A stretch of 64,000 nucleotides of DNA from NCBI GenBank assembly GCA_041395565.1, contig JAWLAI010000007.1, positions 270,967 through 334,966 of the forward strand, read 5' to 3'. The notes under the pieces are model-generated. The model worked only from the letters and a program-made list of their open reading frames with translations, made no database searches and was not told where the DNA came from. Shown here piece after piece: positions 351 through 23,240 of the stretch (position 1 is its first letter; each line of letters starts with the position of its first letter). Made by a program: the position numbers and the translations under genes. The DNA comes from Pseudomonadota bacterium. GTDB taxonomy: Bacteria; Pseudomonadota; Gammaproteobacteria; UBA9214.

Positions 351-1530
351 TCCACTCGTCAATCATGTCTGCCCAGTCTTGCAACATCGCCGTACGCTGC
401 TCTCGGTACTCGGCCTTGTTATAGATGGCTCTCACCCCCTTCTGCTCATGAGCAAGACATTTCTCGATCCAGTCCGTGTTGTAGCCGGCCTCATGCAGTA
501 GCGTGCTGGCCGTACGGCGAAGATCATGCGGGCCGAATTTGGAGAGTGGTTCACCTTTCTTCTGGGCAGCCTGATACGTCAACGTCATGACTCGATTCAA
601 CGTTGCGGCGCTCATAGGCACGTCCGAATCGTATCGTGACGGAAGCACGAATTCAGATCCACCCGCAAAGGTCTTGAGCGCGATGAAAATATCGAGCGCC
701 TGACGAGACAGGTACACCAGATGCGGGTTCCTCCGTTTCATCCGTTCTTTCGGGATAGTCCAAAGTGCCTCGCTGAAATTAACCTCGGACCATGTTGCAT
801 TGGACAGCTCCGATTTTCGAACCATCGTTAGCAATAACAGCTTTATCGCCGCTCGGTATTGGGGCGATGTCCCCACCCGATCCATGTACCGGTACATCAA
901 GCCAATCTCGGCCGGTGTTAACGCGCGATCGCGCGGCTCGAATCGGGCGATGCTTGTCGGGCGCACCATCTCGGCAGGGTTCTCCACCTTCTGCCCGCGT
1001 TCGATTGCCCAACGATAGACCTGCAACACCACTTCGCGAGCATGCACCGCCGTTGCTGGCGCGCCTCTTTCGACGATGGCATCGGTCAATGCACGCAGAT
1101 CTTCATGCGTGATTTCGGCGAGCTTCTGACTACCAAATTGCTTTTTCAATTCTCGTGTATAAACCGACTTGCGCATGTCGCGCGTCGAGTCAGCCATCTG
1201 ATAGCCACGCAGCCACTTTTCAGCCCATGCACCGAACGTCTCGGCATCTTTCACGCGCGCCTTGTCACGCGCCTTTTCCCTGGCAGGTGATTTCCCGGCT
1301 GCCACCATCTTCTTCGCTTCGTTCAATCGTTCCCGCGCTTCCGAAAGCGTGATGCCACCCGTTCCATACCGGCCTATCGTCAGCGTCTCCTGACGCCCGT
1401 TGACCGAGTAGTTATATCTGAAGGAGATGGCTCCTGCCGGCGTCACCGCTGCATAGAGCCCATCGCGGTCGTTCACCTTGTAGAGCTTGTCTCCAGGCTT
1501 CAAGTTACGCAGCTTGGTATCCGTCAGCAT
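331..1530 (-). CDS. int: tyrosine site-specific integrase, P4/CP4-57-like
   Basis: 399-aa ORF with an N-terminal arm-binding-like region (LYAAVTPAGAISFRYNY) and a C-terminal catalytic region (HDLRRTASTLL...LAHE..YN); ATG confirmed at 1530. Confidence 0.9.
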   Translation of the reverse strand: MLTDTKLRNLKPGDKLYKVNDRDGLYAAVTPAGAISFRYNYSVNGRQETLTIGRYGTGGITLSEARERLNEAKKMVAAGKSPAREKARDKARVKDAETFGAWAEKWLRGYQMADSTRDMRKSVYTRELKKQFGSQKLAEITHEDLRALTDAIVERGAPATAVHAREVVLQVYRWAIERGQKVENPAEMVRPTSIARFEPRDRALTPAEIGLMYRYMDRVGTSPQYRAAIKLLLLTMVRKSELSNATWSEVNFSEALWTIPKERMKRRNPHLVYLSRQALDIFIALKTFAGGSEFVLPSRYDSDVPMSAATLNRVMTLTYQAAQKKGEPLSKFGPHDLRRTASTLLHEAGYNTDWIEKCLAHEQKGVRAIYNKAEYREQRTAMLQDWADMIDEWTNGQRR

Positions 1531-1836: not shown

Positions 1837-3417
1837 TCATTCCCACTCGATGGTCGCAGGCGGCTTGCCGGAGATATCGTAGGCGACGCGCGAGATATGC
1901 GGCACCTCGTTGATGATGCGGCGCGAGACGGTATCGAGAAACTCGTATGGCAGGTGCGCCCAGCGCGCGGTCATGAAGTCGATGGTCTCCACGGCGCGCA
2001 ACGCCACCACCCAGGAGTAGCGCCGCCCGTCGCCGGTCACGCCGACCGAGCGCACCGGCAAGAACACCGTGAAGGCCTGACTGACCGCGTCATAGAGCTG
2101 GTGCCGGCGCAGTTCCTCGATGAAGATGTGATCGGCCAGGCGCAGGCAGTCGGCGTATTCCTTCTTCACCTCGCCCAGGATGCGCACGCCCAGCCCCGGC
2201 CCCGGGAACGGATGGCGGTAGACCATGTCGTAGGGCAGGCCGAGCTCGATACCGAGCTTGCGCACCTCGTCCTTGAACAGCTCGCGCAGCGGCTCGAGCA
2301 GTTTCAGTTTCATGTCCTCCGGCAGACCGCCGACGTTGTGGTGCGACTTGATCAGGTGCGCCTTGCCGGTCTTGGCGCCGGCGGATTCGATCACGTCGGG
2401 ATAGATCGTGCCCTGCGCCAGCCACTGGGTGTCGGCACTGAGCCGCGCGGCCTCCTCCTCGAAGACCTCGATGAACAGGTTGCCGATGATCTTGCGCTTG
2501 CGCTCCGGATCGCTCACGCCGTCGAGCGCGGCGAGAAAACGCGCCTCGGCGTCGACGCGGATCACGCGCACGCCCATGTGTTCGGCGAAGGTCGCCATCA
2601 CCTGGTCACCCTCGCGGTAGCGCAGCAGGCCATTGTCGACGAACACGCACACCAGCTGGTCGCCGATCGCCTTGTGCAGCAGCGCCGCAACCACCGAGGA
2701 ATCCACGCCGCCCGACAGGCCCAGCAGCACCCGCTCGCCGCCGACCCGCGCACGGATGTCGCGGATGCTGCTCTCGACGATGTGGTCCGGGGTCCACAGG
2801 GCGTCGCAGGCGCAGATATCGATGACGAAGCGCTGCAGGATGCGCCCGCCCTGGCGGGTGTGGGTCACCTCGGGATGGAACTGGATGCCATAGTAGCCGC
2901 GCTCGTCGTCGGCCATGCCGGCGATCGGCGCGCTGTCGGTCTCGGCGATCACCCGGAACCCGTCCGGCAGCGCGATCACGCGGTCACCGTGACTCATCCA
3001 CACGTCGAGCAGACCGTAGCCGGCCTCCGACATGTGATCCTCGATGTCGGTCAGCAGGCGCGAGTGACCGCGTGCGCGCACCTGGGCATAGCCGTACTCG
3101 TGGTGGTCGGCATTTTCCACGCGTCCGCCGAGTTGCGCCGCCATGGTCTGCATGCCGTAACAGATACCGAGCACCGGCAGGCCGGACTCGAACACCACGG
3201 CCGGCGCACGCGGCGAGGTCGCTGCCGTGACCGTCTCGGGTCCGCCGGAAAGAATGATGCCGCGCGCCCCGAATTCAGCGATCTGCCCGACCTCGGCATC
3301 CCAGGGGAAGATCTCGCAGTACACCCCCAGCTCGCGCACGCGGCGCGCGATCAGCTGGGTGTACTGGGAACCGAAATCCAGGATCAGGATGCGATGGGCA
3401 TGGATGTTATCGGTCAT
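1837..3417 (-). CDS. guaA: GMP synthase (glutamine-hydrolysing)
   Basis: 526 aa; N-terminal GATase ([27 protein letters not shown]), ATP-PPase SGGVDSSV motif, C-terminal ...PATIEWE. Confidence 0.95.
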
Positions 3418-3536
3418 CAGGCAATTCCGGTAGCGAGGGTGTCAGCACCTGCTTCCACCTGCGAAGCGCGCGCCGTGGAAAACAAACGGGAAATGGGTAC
3501 GACCTGAATGGTACTTCCACAGGCCGATGATCCTGT

Positions 3537-3622
3537 CATTCCGGACGCAGCGCAGTGTAGATCCGGAATCCAGTTCGACCGGTTCCCGCACATTCTGGAT
3601 TCCCGCCTGCGCGGGAATGACG
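3537..3622. repeat. REP/BIME-like paired hairpin repeats (ATTCCGGA..TCCGGAAT and ATTCCCGC-CTGC-GCGGGAAT-GACG) in the guaA-guaB spacer
   Basis: Same hairpin family as at 19272-19343; the ORF-track peptides containing IPACAGMT (3527..3718, 19140..19454) are translations of this repeat. Confidence 0.5.
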
Positions 3623-3680
3623 GCACACAAAGCAAATAATTCTTACGCAAGCGCCATCCGGCAATGTACCTGTTGGGACA

Positions 3681-5141
3681 TCAGGTATCGAGCCGGTAGT
3701 TGGGCGCTTCCTTGGTGATGGTCACGTCGTGGACGTGGCTCTCGCGCATGCCGGCATTGGTCACGCGGATGAATTCCGGCCGTGTGCGCATTTCATCGAT
3801 ACTGGCGCATCCCGTGTAGCCCATGCTGGAACGCAGGCCGCCCATGAGCTGGTTCAGGATGCCGATCATCGAGCCCTTGTACGGGACGCGGCCCTCGATA
3901 CCCTCGGGCACCAGCTTGTCCGGTTCGCCGCCCTCCTGGAAATAGCGGTCGCTGGAACCTTCCTTCATGGCGCCCAGTGAACCCATGCCGCGATAGGCCT
4001 TGTAGGAGCGGCCCTGGTAGAGCTCGACCTCGCCCGGCGCCTCCTCGGTACCGGCCAGCATGCTGCCGATCATCACCGACCACGCGCCGGCAGCCAGTGC
4101 CTTGGCGATATCGCCGGAATAGCGGATGCCGCCGTCCGCGATCAGCGGAATGCCGTCCCGGCGCAGTTCCTCGGCGACGTTGGCGACCGCGGATATCTGC
4201 GGCACGCCGATGCCGGAAACGATACGAGTGGTACAGATCGAGCCGGGACCGATGCCGACCTTGACCGCGTCCGCGCCCGCCTCGACCAGCGCGCGCGCCG
4301 CCGCCGCGGTGGCGATGTTGCCGCCGATCACCTGCAGGTCGGGATAGTGCTGCTTCACCCAGCGCACGCGGTTGAGCACGCCCTGGGAATGGCCGTGCGC
4401 GGTATCGACCACCACCACGTCGACCTCGGCCGCCGCCAGCGCCTCGATACGGGCCTCGCTGTCGCCGCCGGTGCCGACCGCCGCGCCGACCCGCAGGCGG
4501 CCATACTCGTCCTTGCAGGCGCTGGGGAAGTCCGTGGATTTCTGTATGTCCTTGACCGTGATCATGCCGCGCAGCTTGAAATCGTCGTTGATGACCAGCA
4601 CGCGCTCGATGCGGTGCTTGTGCAGCAGCGCGATCACCTCATCCTTGGAGGCACCCTCGTGCACGGTCACCAACCGGTCCTTCGGCGTCATCACGCTGGA
4701 GACCGGATTGTCGAGGTTGGTCTCGAAGCGGCGGTCACGGCTGGTGACGATGCCGACCAAGTCGTCGCCGTCGACCACCGGCACGCCGGAGATGTTGTTG
4801 GCGCGGGTCAGCGCGATCACGTCGCGGATGCTGGTACTCGGCGCGACCGTGATCGGGTCCTTGATGACCCCGCTCTCGAACTTCTTGACCCTGCGCACCT
4901 CAGCCGCCTGACCTTCGATGGGCAGGTTCTTGTGGATGATGCCGATGCCGCCTTCCTGCGCGAGGGTGATGGCGAGGCGCGACTCGGTGACGGTATCCAT
5001 GGCCGCCGAGAGCAGCGGGATCTGCAGGCGGATATCGCGGGTCAGCTGGCTGTGCAGACTGACGTCGCGCGGCAGTACGTTCGAATGTGCGGGCAGCAGC
5101 AGGACGTCATCGAAGGTAAGGGCTTCCTGCACAATGCGCAT
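3681..5141 (-). CDS. guaB: IMP dehydrogenase
   Basis: 486 aa; [24 protein letters not shown]..., CBS pair, catalytic [11 protein letters not shown]. Confidence 0.95.
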
Positions 5142-19586: not shown

Positions 19587-20666
19587 TCACAGCAACCCGC
19601 CGAGCGCGGCGAGGAAGGCCGCGTTCTCCTCCGGCCGGCCCACGGTCACGCGCAGGCAGTCGCGCAGTGCGGGCGCCGAACCGTCCAGGTTCTTGATCAG
19701 GATCCCGGCCTGTTGCAGGCCTGTAAAGACGGCGCCGGCACGTCCGGCCGGTACACGGAACAGGATGAAGTTGGCCTCGCTCGGATACACCGTCAGCGCC
19801 GCAAAACCGTGCAAGCCGGCTGCGAGTTCCGCACGCGCGGCGCGGATCTGCGCGGCCTGCGCGTCGAACACGTCGCGGTGCGCCAGGGCCAGTGCGCCGG
19901 TCGCCTGGTTCAGCGTACCGATGTTGTATGGCAGGCGGGTCTTGTCGATTTGCGCGATCCATTCCGGATGACCGGCCAGCAGGCCCAGCCGCAGACCGGC
20001 GAGCCCGAGCTTGGAGACGGTGCGCAGTACCAGCAGGTTGTCATGGCGGCCGAGTTCCGCCATGAAGCTCGCGCTGGTAAACGGGGCGTAGGCCTCGTCC
20101 ACCACGACCAGCCCGGTGGCGGTCTCGAGTAGCGCGCGGATGACGGCGGCATCGAACAGGTTGCCGGTCGGATTGTTGGGGTAGGCCAGGAAGGTCACCG
20201 CCGGCTGCAGCGTCGCGACAGCATCCAGGACCGCTTCCCGGGCCAGCGCGAAGTCTGGCGCCAGCGGCACGCCACTGAATTCCAGTCCCGCCACGGTCGC
20301 GATCTGCCGGTACATGACGAAGGTCGGTTCCGGCGCCAGGATGACGCGGCCCGGCCCTGCCACGGTCTGGACGATCATCTGGATCAGCTCATCCGAACCG
20401 TTGCCGAGCATGACCCCGGCCGTTGCCGGCACCCCCATGGCGGCACGCAGCGCGGCCTGCAGCTCCCCCGCCGCGGGATCGGGGTAGCGGTTCAGCTCGA
20501 GGTCGCGCAATGCGTCGAGCCACGCCGCGCGCAGTTCGTCCGGCCATGGCCACGGGTTTTCCATGGCGTCGAGCTTGATCATGCCCGTCGCCGGTGGCAC
20601 GTGGTAGGCGTGCATGGCCTGGATTTCCGGACGTACCAGTCTGGTTATCTTGTCTTGAAGGGACAC
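19587..20666 (-). CDS. hisC: histidinol-phosphate aminotransferase
   Basis: 359 aa, class-II aminotransferase (SK lysine motif TVSKLGLAGLRLG). Confidence 0.9.
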   Translation of the reverse strand: MSLQDKITRLVRPEIQAMHAYHVPPATGMIKLDAMENPWPWPDELRAAWLDALRDLELNRYPDPAAGELQAALRAAMGVPATAGVMLGNGSDELIQMIVQTVAGPGRVILAPEPTFVMYRQIATVAGLEFSGVPLAPDFALAREAVLDAVATLQPAVTFLAYPNNPTGNLFDAAVIRALLETATGLVVVDEAYAPFTSASFMAELGRHDNLLVLRTVSKLGLAGLRLGLLAGHPEWIAQIDKTRLPYNIGTLNQATGALALAHRDVFDAQAAQIRAARAELAAGLHGFAALTVYPSEANFILFRVPAGRAGAVFTGLQQAGILIKNLDGSAPALRDCLRVTVGRPEENAAFLAALGGLL

Positions 20667-20720
20667 AGTTAGTTTCTCGATCGATCAGTATTATCTAAAT
20701 TTCAATTCTTGAATTCTCAT

Positions 20721-21211
20721 TTCGCCCTGTCGGGCGAGATACTTTCTCTTGCGTGCCCAAGAGAAAGTACCCAAAGAGAAGGGCACCCGCTGGCCGCGCC
20801 GGCTGTGCCGGTGCCCTGCGTTCCTCGCCCGGCCGGGGCGTGCACAACTCGGAGCCGGAGCGGGATGTTGATCCCGCTCCGGCTTGCCTCGGACAGGGTG
20901 CGCGCCAATATCCCGGCCGGGCTGCGGTACTCGGCGCGGCCGACGGGACCGGGGTGGCAGTAACAGCCCCGTCAGGCGTAGCCGAGCAGCGCAACCGGTT
21001 CGGGATTGAGCGAGCCGCCGTGTCGAGCTGGATTTGCGAGCCGGCAGGCGCGGCAAATCCTGCGAGTTCGGCGAGCGCCCGAACCGGCGAGCAGCGCAGG
21101 TAACCCGGTAAGTCAGCAAAGCTGACTTACCGGGCAAGCCTCCGGGCCGCCTTTCTTTTGGGTACTTTTCTTTGGCGGCGCAAAGAAAAGTACCTCGCCC
21201 GACAGGGCGAA
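20721..21211. mobile_element. MITE-like non-coding element of about 490 bp with about 62-bp imperfect terminal inverted repeats, inserted between hisD and hisC
   Basis: Left arm 20721-20782 is nearly identical to the reverse complement of 21150-21211; each arm is itself hairpin-forming; two perfect internal stem-loops (20855-20882, 11-bp stem; 21104-21134, 14-bp stem); no credible ORF. Confidence 0.45.
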
Positions 21212-21286
21212 ACCTGGCAGACATCCGGAATTCTGGACTGTGAACAGGGATCTTGTCAGCCAGGATTCCCTGTTCGACAATTTTAA

Positions 21287-22588
<1,302 letters not shown>

Positions 22589-22589
22589 G

Positions 22590-23240
22590 TCAGCGCCCGT
22601 CGGCCCCGACTGCGGCGCGCAGGCGCCTGATGAAATCGCTGATACGCCCATGCTTCATCTTCATGGATGCCTTGTTCACGACCAGCCGCGAGCTGATGTC
22701 CGCGATGTGCTCCAGCGGAACCAGACCGTTCGCCTTGAGGGTATTGCCGGTATCCACCACATCGACGATGCGGTCGGCCAGACCCACCAACGGCGCCAGT
22801 TCCATGGAACCATAGAGCTTGATGATCTCCACCTGTTCCTGGCGGTCGGCGTAGAAGCGGCGCGTACTGTGCACGTACTTGGTGGCGATGCGCATGCGCC
22901 GGCGCGCCGGGCCGGCCCCGGTCGGCCCCGCGACCATCAGCCGGCAGCGTGCGATCCGGAGATCGAGCGGCTCGTACAGGCCATCGCCGCCATGCTCCAT
23001 GAGCACGTCCTTGCCGGCCACCCCCATGTCGGCGGCGCCGTAACCGACGTAGGTCGGTACGTCCGCGGCGCGGATGATCACCAGCTTCACGTCGTCCTGG
23101 TTGGTGTCCAGGATGAGCTTGCGGCTGGTCTCCGGATCGTCGACCGGCACCACGCCTGCCGCTTCCAGCAGCGGCAGGGTTTCCTTGAAGATGCGCCCCT
23201 TGGACAGGGCGATGGTCAGCGCGGTATTCATGGATGGCAA
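22590..23240 (-). CDS. hisG: ATP phosphoribosyltransferase (short form)
   Basis: About 213 aa; TIALSKGRI...; the start is either ATG 23240 or the in-frame ATG at 23231. Confidence 0.9.

Follow-up and report, generated by a model that had tools for sequence, protein, structure and literature searches.

What accounts for the long gap between hisD and hisC in the histidine operon of a gammaproteobacterium of the lineage UBA9214? The gap lies in a stretch of 64,000 nucleotides (nt) of contig JAWLAI010000007.1 (assembly GCA_041395565.1, positions 270,967 to 334,966 of the forward strand), called the window throughout. A first-pass annotation, made from the letters alone, had proposed that the spacer holds a miniature inverted-repeat transposable element (MITE) or another small non-autonomous mobile element or, alternatively, a large structured RNA. 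We find there a non-coding element of 493 bp (20720-21212) with relatives in many genomes. Each of its two ends is predicted to fold into a pseudoknot with a triple helix, and we read the whole, with a confidence that stands about midway between belief and doubt, as a mobile or selfish element defined by its structure.

Structure of the element ends

The element consists of an outer hairpin, a B arm, a multi-domain interior, an A arm and a second outer hairpin. Its limits were set from its inverted repeat and from a comparison of orthologous spacers in relatives, two of which hold a solo hairpin (loci L125 and L126 of our set) and two a filled site (L124 and L148). A repeat search delimits inverted arms of 75 nt (20720-20794 and 21138-21212). 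The first-pass annotation had the coordinates of these imperfect repeats right and their identity too high, as the arms are 76% complementary over 75 nt and 79% over 62 nt rather than 85-90%. The outermost 19 nt, TTTCGCCCTGTCGGGCGAG, are the same at both ends of the element, against a chance expectation of 0.01 matches. Each arm had also been described as a hairpin in itself, and perfect hairpins are indeed found at 20740-20769 (strands 20740-20751 and 20758-20769) and 21161-21194 (strands 21161-21174 and 21181-21194). Folded as a single sequence, the element has a z score of -13 to -15 on either strand.

The architecture of the arms became apparent when 117 to 157 of them, depending on the covariation set, were compared. 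The order of blocks is pyrimidine-N3-pyrimidine-N6-purine, with blocks of 10-11 nt and loops of 3 and 6 nt. Written with the 3' end outward, the consensus is GGG-TCGC-C[TTTTCTTT]G-GTT-AC[TTTCTTTT]G-GCGA-AG-C[AAAAGAAA]GT-AAC; the outer hairpin, rich in GC, comes next. We call the three blocks U1, U2 and U3 in this order. Together with three flanking pairs, U2 and U3 form a hairpin of 14 bp (S2), in which 98.8% of the alignment cells are paired and 6 pairs show compensatory changes. A second helix (S1) is formed by the 4 nt that precede the first pyrimidine block and the first 4 nt of the hairpin loop; 96.8% of its cells are paired and 3 of its 4 pairs are compensatory, the combinations seen being TCGC/GCGA, TGCC/GGCA, TGGC/GCCA and CCGC/GCGG. 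Because S1 crosses the hairpin, the fold of the arm is a pseudoknot.

The third relation involves the remaining block. In about 123 of 131 arms U1 is the reverse of U2 and U3 is the complement of U2, and six mirror types can be told apart. When U1 and U3 are aligned in parallel, T·A and C·G together make up 99.8% of the cells and 114 double changes are counted; sliding the partner columns lowers the score to 50-87%. The pattern used to collect the arms did not contain U3 and left the variable positions of U1 and U2 as free pyrimidines; hence, ascertainment is not the source of the covariation signal. An unbiased scan for mutual information in 157 arms returned as its top signals exactly the S1, S2 and U1·U3 relations, and in it the three-way columns change as a unit, being (T,T,A) in some arms and (C,C,G) in others.

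A pyrimidine-motif triplex consists of T·A-T and C+·G-C triples, in which the third strand has the same direction as the purine strand. Mirror covariation of two pyrimidine tracts and one purine tract is therefore the pattern expected from an intramolecular pyrimidine·purine-pyrimidine triplex. A protein that binds three copies of one site can be discounted as the cause, since it would give direct rather than mirror similarity. Two other features agree with a triplex: no arm has adjacent cytosines in the tract, and in 64 of 117 arms (55%) a T.G or G.T wobble occupies one stem position. The fold is strand-specific because such a wobble is a mismatch on the complementary strand. Taken together, each arm appears to be an H-type pseudoknot with 8 T·A-T/C+·G-C triples, formed on the strand whose 3' end points outward; this topology is inferred from the covariation. 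In such a fold S1 would anchor U1 at the loop end of the hairpin, and from there U1 would lie in the major groove, in the same direction as the purine strand, over the length of the 8 triples. This leaves 5 bp of the hairpin for a single nucleotide to span, which seems feasible if loop 1 of RNA pseudoknots is a guide. The pattern of change indicates that the ends are selected for strand-specific folding of this kind. Another reading of the loop, as a d(GCGAAGC) mini-hairpin, is out, as the loop covaries with the upstream strand.

In the window, the A arm (21141-21201) folds on the + strand and matches the covariance model of the arm with 76.7 bits (E 4e-21), with support from both pair and triple covariation. 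Its mirror type is TTTCTTTT/TTTTCTTT. Its parts are, in order, the first strand of S1 (CCGC, 21147-21150), the third strand U1 (TTTCTTTT, 21152-21159), the 5' strand of the hairpin (GGT-AC-TTTTCTTT-G, 21161-21174), the second strand of S1 (GCGG, 21175-21178) and the 3' strand of the hairpin (C-AAAGAAAA-GT-ACC, 21181-21194). The B arm (20731-20791; 73.2 bits) folds on the - strand, which is the sense strand of the his genes, and is of another mirror type, TTCTCTTT/TTTCTCTT. Read on that strand, it comprises TGCC (20782-20785), U1 (TTCTCTTT, 20773-20780), the 5' strand of the hairpin (20758-20771), GGCA (20754-20757) and the 3' strand of the hairpin (20738-20751). Unlike ends of this sort are the rule: all 12 full copies of the window's subfamily that could be typed carry one A and one B arm, and so do 15 of 17 pairs in the family as a whole. 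The structural constraint is accordingly internal to each arm, and the difference between the ends weakens pairing between the arms at the triplex blocks and favors the local fold.

The outer hairpin on the A side (21194-21212, + strand) reads CTCGCCC-GACA-GGGCGAAA and has a GNRA-like loop on the strand of its own arm. It often precedes CCYG, in the window CCTG at 21213-21216. Its counterpart on the B side (20720-20738) reads CTCGCCCGACAGGGCGAAA on the - strand. The loops TGTC and GACA are reverse complements of each other, and the outer hairpins are for this reason a true inverted repeat, not a duplicated target. No solo outer hairpins that would form an independent repeat family were found in the window.

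One copy of the element is present in the 64 kb, and its two arms are the only clear matches to the arm model. A weak match at 545-598 (+ strand; 10.9 bits, E 0.15) may be a decayed arm or a chance hit.

The interior

The segment between the arms (20795-21137), inside the closing helix, is made of conserved blocks and local hairpin domains. On the - strand the blocks read CTGCG(A/C)TGCTCGGC, GCGCCGAGTACCGCAGCC, GGCGCGCACCCTGTCCGAGGCA, CCGAGTTGTGC.CG.CCCCGG and GGCGAGGAACGCAGGG. An alignment of 14 full copies of the subfamily, each from a different locus, shows a clear polarity, and the blocks that are strongly kept in it include CTGCGATGCTCGGC, GCGCCGAGTACCGCAGCC, GGCGCGCACCCTGTCCGAGGCA, CCGAGTTGTGCGCGCCCCCGG and GGCGAGGAACGCAGGG. 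The conserved blocks alternate with hairpins that, from copy to copy, are swapped for unrelated hairpins at the same position. RNAalifold places a closing helix around five local hairpin domains, with 123 pairs of which 24 show compensatory changes. Judged by these changes, the interior is selected to fold into several hairpin domains. The first-pass annotation had suggested a check of the internal hairpins for structural covariation across homologues; such covariation is seen in the interior as well as in the arms.

The two perfect internal stem-loops that had been pointed out beforehand are present, both with 14-bp stems, and both belong to the exchangeable kind. The hairpin at 20853-20884 is replaced in other copies by unrelated hairpins, some of them with GACA or GATA loops; the one at 21104-21134, which adjoins the A arm, varies in length and sequence. 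A central hairpin (GGATTTGC...GCAAATCC, 21027-21063) is found in most copies of the subfamily and is about 95% conserved among orthologues at the his locus. Two smaller features of the earlier description, a short direct repeat (CGAGCAGCGCA, which occurs twice in the insert) and an AT-rich flank toward hisC, were likewise found.

If only those interior pairs are counted that the predictions for the two strands share, there are 18 G.U against 2 A.C on the strand that is sense for the B arm and for the his genes. Taken as a strand preference this excess is a weak hint, as the sequences are related.

History of the insertion at the his locus

The genes that border the spacer lie on the - strand outside the element and were confirmed as hisD (21287-22651; NCBIfam equivalog TIGR00069, E 2.2e-159) and hisC (19587-20666; TIGR01141, E 2.7e-95). 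The hisC product is 100% identical to a protein from a metagenome-assembled genome of Pseudomonadota. The gap is 620 bp, as had been estimated. The supposition that the two genes are normally adjacent or overlapping did not hold, since relatives that lack the element still have 96-170 bp between them.

Five comparisons of the locus were made with relatives whose HisC is 79-83% identical. L124 and L148 carry an orthologous element at the same place and share an interior insertion relative to the window; both facts argue that the element has been inherited vertically. Between the window and L124 the interior blocks are about 90% identical and the flanking spacers about 55%. The comparison with L148 offers a direct example of compensation, as S1 of the A arm changes from CCGC/GCGG to TCGC/GCGA on both sides. 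L125 and L126 have just TTTCGCCCTGTCGGGCGAAA where the others have TTTCGCCCTGTCGGGCGAG, the core and CTCGCCCGACAGGGCGAAA, and their flanks are closest to those of L148. The most plausible reading of this solo hairpin is that the element was lost secondarily, perhaps when slippage occurred between the GGGCGA direct repeats at the base of the palindrome, with the caveat that the four bases after the hairpin also differ. L127 and L129 have unrelated spacers between hisD and hisC. The comparisons indicate that the insertion in the his operon is ancient and vertically inherited, and they speak against a recent hop.

A second site inside an operon is found in Variovorax, Hydrogenophaga and Acidovorax, where the element lies between two genes for ATPases of branched-chain/urea-type ABC transporters. 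Copies at this site are L019 (6458-7004), L053 (6305-6578) and L040 (1-72), and Variovorax and Hydrogenophaga have almost the same sequence in the 50 nt inside the 3' arm. Another empty-site comparison, with Ralstonia loci L001 and L073, gave no result, as their flanks matched no other records.

Other repeats were seen around the his spacers. Those of the relatives contain a different repeat family (L124, 4080-4604; L127, 1833-2423; L129, 2830-3000), which includes CCACGGAA-type repeats, palindromes of the sequence GCGTTTTACGCACC and the tandem heptamers GTGAGAC and GTGAAAG. In the window, a 9-bp inverted repeat (GAACAGGGA...TCCCTGTTC, 21243-21276) directly follows the hisD stop codon, outside the element, and is not kept in L124, L125 or L148.

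Distribution of the family

When plasmids and chromids were searched with the element by BLAST, the part that matched was the right arm of about 60 nt, in Ralstonia, Aeromonas and Pasteurella. The loci retrieved hold elements of 410-490 bp with the same ends and quite different interiors. A scan of one genome per species with the pattern CCTTYYYTTTGNNNACTTTYYYTTGG then returned at least 120 genome stretches, mainly from Beta- and Gammaproteobacteria: matches occur in Comamonadaceae, Ralstonia, Burkholderia, Thiobacillus and Dechloromonas, and also in Lysobacterales, Pseudomonas, Aeromonas, methanotrophs and a few other phyla. Most elements measure 400-600 bp, with arms of about 60-90 nt, and many arms have no partner within 1.5 kb and may be called solo units. 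Viral contigs are poor in the motif, which was found in only 11 stretches of 2.9 million.

Copy number is uneven. The megaplasmids of Ralstonia sp. RRA.1 and R. wenshanensis have 19-20 places each, and those of the R. solanacearum complex usually 4 (range 2-9), a difference of about 5-fold between Ralstonia lineages. Within the RRA.1 replicon, 12 places matched by megablast, which needs about 85% identity. The window's own subfamily, searched with its arm and outer-hairpin sequence as query, was recovered in 30 metagenome stretches with at least 20 different flanks, all of them from sediments. A MITE had been expected to be multicopy, and in this respect the first-pass annotation was right. 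One-armed remnants and nested insertions are common among the copies, and deletion derivatives of the subfamily range from 188 bp up to the full length of about 540 bp.

Searches of Rfam with E up to 10 gave chance-level hits for the window and none at the gathering score for 18 loci. We found no description of this repeat family in the open-access literature: a search with the letters of the motif returned nothing relevant, and searches by topic returned only papers on BoxC/PIT and REPIN repeats. The family is thus widespread and apparently undescribed.

Several copies contain further insertions. A nested insert of about 75-95 nt with 3-4 mini-hairpins (...CCAATTCGCCGGGAGCGAATTGG GACATCCGCAGGATG GCCCGCAGGGC GAAGTCCAGGGACGGACTTCGCAT) recurs in at least six copies, always at the same point of the purine block, in arms of either type; examples are L124 (about 2480-2560, A arm), L145, L149, L150, L157, L160 and L167. 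The insert may be a variant of the arm, or else another small element with the arm hairpin as its target. L160 has in addition a REP-like palindromic insertion (GTAGGTCGGATTAGCGAC...TAATCCGACCTAC) in the interior, at alignment columns 340-450. In the copy of Aeromonas caviae (L002), a terminal sequence like that of insertion sequence (IS) IS5, GGGAAAGTGCGAACAAGTATC..., lies at 2560-2700, where the left half of the element would be expected, which suggests that an IS insertion truncated this copy.

Mobility features and the search for a partner enzyme

Small size, absence of coding sequence, inverted-repeat boundaries, dispersed copies in both orientations, and presence or absence at an orthologous site are all features of a small non-autonomous mobile element, and to this extent the proposal of the first-pass annotation stands. 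The more specific attribution to a typical MITE does not. Target-site duplications, for which the annotation had advised a search, were absent from the flanks of about 15 full copies. The ends are of two types, A and B, and not homogenised copies of each other, and what is conserved in them is a fold rather than a sequence of the kind that a protein site would have.

The flanks do have a pattern: CRGG is followed by TTTCGCCC...GGGCGAAA and then by CCYG, and the two sides are sometimes inverted complements. In L146 and L161 the inverted complementarity extends beyond the element for 10 nt and 7 nt, respectively, which hints at insertion into palindromes. The elements lie in either orientation relative to the neighboring genes, with no fixed polarity, though positions downstream of genes are in mild excess. 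In 63% of cases the gene outside an arm is directed toward the element, a figure obtained with heuristic GC-frame gene calls and a loose arm detector that picks up noise. In the inward direction, ACTTTTCTTT or ACTTTCTCTT comes after each outer hairpin, and the ends resemble a weak intrinsic terminator whose stem depends on G.U pairs and whose tract is broken; operons nevertheless tolerate the element. A search of its interior for promoters gave none.

No recurrent mobility gene, transposase or RAYT was found beside about 125 loci, sampled at about one locus per genome. The genes that do recur next to arms belong to ordinary large paralogous families (GGDEF, LysR, TctC, SDR, ABC). No cognate autonomous IS with the same ends was found among about 170 loci. 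Pairs of arms that are 1.5-2.4 kb apart do exist (L078, L084, L089, L113 and L091). The large stretches that such arms enclose carry an HNH homing endonuclease with unrelated genes, open reading frames (ORFs) for glycine-zipper or small hydrophobic proteins, or nothing recognisable; we read these contents as nested cargo and not as a transposase.

Two of the large stretches have features of their own. In L078 (2827-5151) the interior holds an HNH endonuclease with homing-endonuclease repeats (3085-4026; PF18780, PF01844) and small genes. The HNH gene is flanked on either side by a copy of one stretch of the interior, an arrangement that we read as a nested mobile cassette. In L091 (1-1500) the inverted ends share 98% identity over 151 nt and lie at a distance of 1.5 kb, the left one being cut by the contig edge; between them is an AT-rich segment that contains two ORFs for small hydrophobic proteins (148 and 140 aa).

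Comparison with known systems

The closest parallel is offered by the BoxC repeats, also called PIT (potential intrastrand triplex) or TM_ECO (Hoyne and Maher 2000; Holder et al. 2015). As described by Holder et al. 2015 (PMC4666352), these repeats of E. coli and other bacteria follow the pattern CCCTCNCCC-N3-6-GGGNGAGGG-N3-GGGNGAGGG, and in vitro their DNA adopts a triplex. They occur in many copies between genes, go together with instability of the genome nearby, and showed neither promoter or terminator activity nor a link to mobile elements; E. coli K-12 has five inverted TM_ECO pairs, each made of a type A and a type B unit (PMC4666352).

The family described here resembles BoxC/PIT in the order of its blocks (pyrimidine-N3-6-purine-N3-purine or, on the other strand, pyrimidine-N3-pyrimidine-N3-6-purine) and in the mirror symmetry between like blocks. 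Other points in common are an intergenic and multicopy distribution, the lack of strand bias, the frequency of solo units, the inverted A and B pairs with purine blocks inward, and the lack of a known function and of a linked transposase. The two differ in sequence, to which no similarity extends: the arms of our family are A/T-rich, of the CTTTTCTTTG type, and not of the CCCTCNCCC/GGGNGAGGG type, and so the triplex favored at neutral pH is the T·A-T pyrimidine type. The E. coli BoxC pair between hrpB and mrcB has the same block order and inward purine blocks; its halves are 17 bp apart, whereas ours are separated by a structured interior of about 350 bp. The 4-bp pseudoknot helix, the 3-bp extension of the hairpin and the outer GC hairpin of our arms are all absent from that pair. 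The BoxC triplex has been shown in vitro; ours is predicted from covariation. By its letters, then, the family is not BoxC, and in architecture it presents itself as an elaborated A/T-rich variant. As a side observation, G/C-rich BoxC-like triplex motifs (CCCCTCTCCC-TCC-GGGGGAGGG-CTA-GGGTGGGGG type) occur 50-200 bp from arms of the A/T type in the betaproteobacterial metagenome-assembled genome of L078 (2740-2775) and in Aeromonas caviae (L002, 3221-3255).

REPINs, inverted REP doublets mobilised by RAYT tyrosine transposases (PMC3116915, PMC3337134), have units of about 20-35 nt and doublets of about 100 nt. They too are non-autonomous, non-coding and intergenic, with inverted units that form a long hairpin in single strands and leave solo remnants. 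REPINs are not known to make target duplications, another point in common. Our family is 4-6 times longer, has a conserved multi-domain interior, ends in triplex pseudoknots rather than simple REP palindromes, and has no RAYT next to any of the sampled loci. The structured MITEs Correia/CREE, ERIC and RUP are also small inverted-repeat elements. They are co-transcribed with genes, and their RNA hairpins can affect the processing or stability of mRNA. In contrast to our family they have target duplications (TA for Correia) and IS-like ends, and none to our knowledge has mirror-repeat triplex ends.

Among RNAs, H-type triplex pseudoknots are known from telomerase RNA, the SAM-II and SAM-V riboswitches and PreQ1-II, and triple helices from ENE and MALAT1. 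The H-type pseudoknots share the topology of the arm: an S1 helix, a loop 1 that lies in the major groove of S2 with U·A-U/C+·G-C triples, and a short loop 3. The 8 consecutive triples of the arm are comparable to ENE-type helices. SAM-V in particular is documented as a triplex pseudoknot (PMC6061858). All these RNAs are single-copy and have known ligands or partners; the arm, in contrast, is a repeated genomic element found on both strands, with a putative RNA form. Finally, integron attC sites, the ends of IS200/IS605 elements and the single-strand origins of rolling-circle plasmids are folded sites of single-stranded DNA. They resemble our family in relying on structure over sequence, in strand specificity and in the lack of target duplication; we know of none that has a triple helix or inverted pairs around a conserved interior.

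Interpretation and alternatives

The reading to which we give about as much credence as to all others together is that of a non-autonomous, non-coding, dispersed element that is defined by its structure, behaves as a mobile or selfish unit and acts through a single-stranded form. Spread or maintenance would involve a single-stranded intermediate, in our view more likely DNA exposed at replication or repair, a parallel to REPINs, attC sites and the ends of IS200/IS605. A factor acting in trans would recognise the folded ends, and integration would occur without target duplication, perhaps with a preference for palindromic targets. Loss by slippage across the base of a hairpin would leave one outer hairpin. 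In the his operon, the element would be an old, tolerated and transcribed spacer with no part in histidine biosynthesis.

Several observations weigh against this reading. No mobilising enzyme or autonomous copy was found among some 125-170 loci. No recent pair of near-identical copies at different loci came to light for the genome of the window, whose 64 kb contain a single copy. Vertical inheritance extends across lineages whose HisC is about 83% identical, and the conservation of the interior above that of the spacers looks like selection for a function and not only like selfish persistence. Some features are RNA-like (the H-type pseudoknot, GNRA-like loops, frequent wobbles of the G.U type and a multi-domain interior with conserved junctions), and elements inside operons must be transcribed.

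Is the single-stranded form DNA or RNA? The tests made here are compatible with both, and the two are not mutually exclusive. We lean toward DNA, with a conviction no firmer than in the reading as a whole, because both arms keep their full constraint on opposite strands, because orientation relative to genes is free, because copies must spread somehow, and because the BoxC precedent is a DNA triplex. The first-pass annotation's alternative of a large structured nucleic acid receives strong support, as covariation in both the ends and the interior follows the pattern of a single strand that folds.

A less probable but serious alternative is that the element acts mainly as RNA, with a triplex pseudoknot and a stable hairpin at the 3' end of a transcript in either orientation. 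It could mechanically block exonucleases of 3'-to-5' polarity, or else Rho or ribosomes, and so stabilise or insulate the upstream mRNA, or the multi-domain RNA of about 450 nt could itself be a functional non-coding RNA; the symmetry of the two ends would make the function independent of orientation. The wobble found in 55% of arms, the GNRA-like loops on the strand of the arm itself and the RNA-like topology are in keeping with this possibility. So are the interior, with its conserved junction blocks, swappable hairpins, 24 compensatory pairs and conservation far above the flanking spacers, the G.U excess on the his-sense strand, the tendency of outside genes to point toward the element, and the positions inside operons that are kept across lineages (hisD-hisC, and the ABC-ATPase site in three genera of Comamonadaceae). 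The constraints on opposite strands are, however, difficult to accommodate, since a single transcript sees one of the arms only as its complement, and the purine-type triplex that the complement arm would need does not form in RNA (PMC4666352). Other difficulties are the free orientation, the lack of a promoter inside the element and of an Rfam match, the resemblance of the inward-read ends to a weak terminator, which would oppose read-through, and the fact that the PIT elements of E. coli have no promoter or terminator activity (PMC4666352). A function as RNA also leaves the spread of copies unexplained.

A more specific version seems to us doubtful: either strand would encode a structured RNA of about 450 nt, itself the active form, whose 3' pseudoknot with 8 U·A-U/C+·G-C triples would be a bacterial counterpart of the triplex stability elements of eukaryotes and viruses. 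Such an RNA could be an orientation-independent protector or insulator of 3' ends domesticated by its hosts or, a more radical idea, a template or guide for self-copying.

Unlikely, in our opinion, is a passive DNA motif of the BoxC/PIT kind, prone to form triplexes and cruciforms, which would stall replication, promote rearrangement and spread by recombination or gene conversion with no dedicated function. It would account for the block architecture and the inverted A and B pairing shared with the TM_ECO loci of E. coli, which are hypervariable and have no link to mobile elements (PMC4666352), and for the commonness of deletion derivatives (188-540 bp), nested insertions and one-armed remnants. 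The solo hairpin at the his locus also fits slippage between the 6-bp GGGCGA repeats. Yet dozens of unrelated loci share a polar sequence of about 450 bp, which calls for a copying mechanism, and copy number varies roughly 5-fold between Ralstonia lineages. The covariation of three structural features and the conservation of interior blocks, moreover, imply selection on the fold and not mere tolerance.

We consider very improbable a classical MITE, that is, a deletion derivative of an IS with a DDE transposase, moved by cut-and-paste through its terminal inverted repeats. The 75-nt inverted repeats, the 493-bp size and the multicopy, intergenic distribution are what such an element would have, and against them stand the missing target duplications in about 15 copies, the failure to find, among about 170 loci, any full-length relative whose ends enclose a transposase, the heterotypic ends, and the mirror covariation between blocks, which protein binding to three copies of one site does not explain.

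The reading of the spacer as a protein-coding gene can be effectively dismissed: the statement of the annotation that the spacer has no credible ORF calls for a qualification, since a 199-codon ORF (20691-21290, - strand, as for the his genes) spans the insert, is matched in length in only 24 of 2000 shuffles and has a 202-codon counterpart in L148, but this ORF is not coding, as GC at the three codon positions is flat (0.65/0.60/0.61, versus 0.73/0.47-0.51/0.84-0.85 in hisC and hisD), Pfam and NCBIfam give no match, indels of 1 and 2 nt separate the orthologous elements, and L124 has no long frame.

Significance

BoxC/PIT repeats have been known for 25 years without a function or a mechanism of spread, and the evidence for their triplex comes from in vitro work only. 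The present family offers hundreds of diverged copies whose three strands covary, and this is evolutionary evidence that a triple helix forms in cells and is selected. To the picture of triplex repeats the family adds a pseudoknot that positions the third strand, a polar conserved interior and heterotypic ends, and it provides a model that can guide genome searches toward a partner enzyme. Should RNA prove to be the acting form, we know of no earlier description of a long triple-helix 3' module in bacteria. In a more immediate sense, the family explains overlong non-coding spacers within operons in many Proteobacteria, and it cautions against spurious ORF calls through such elements.

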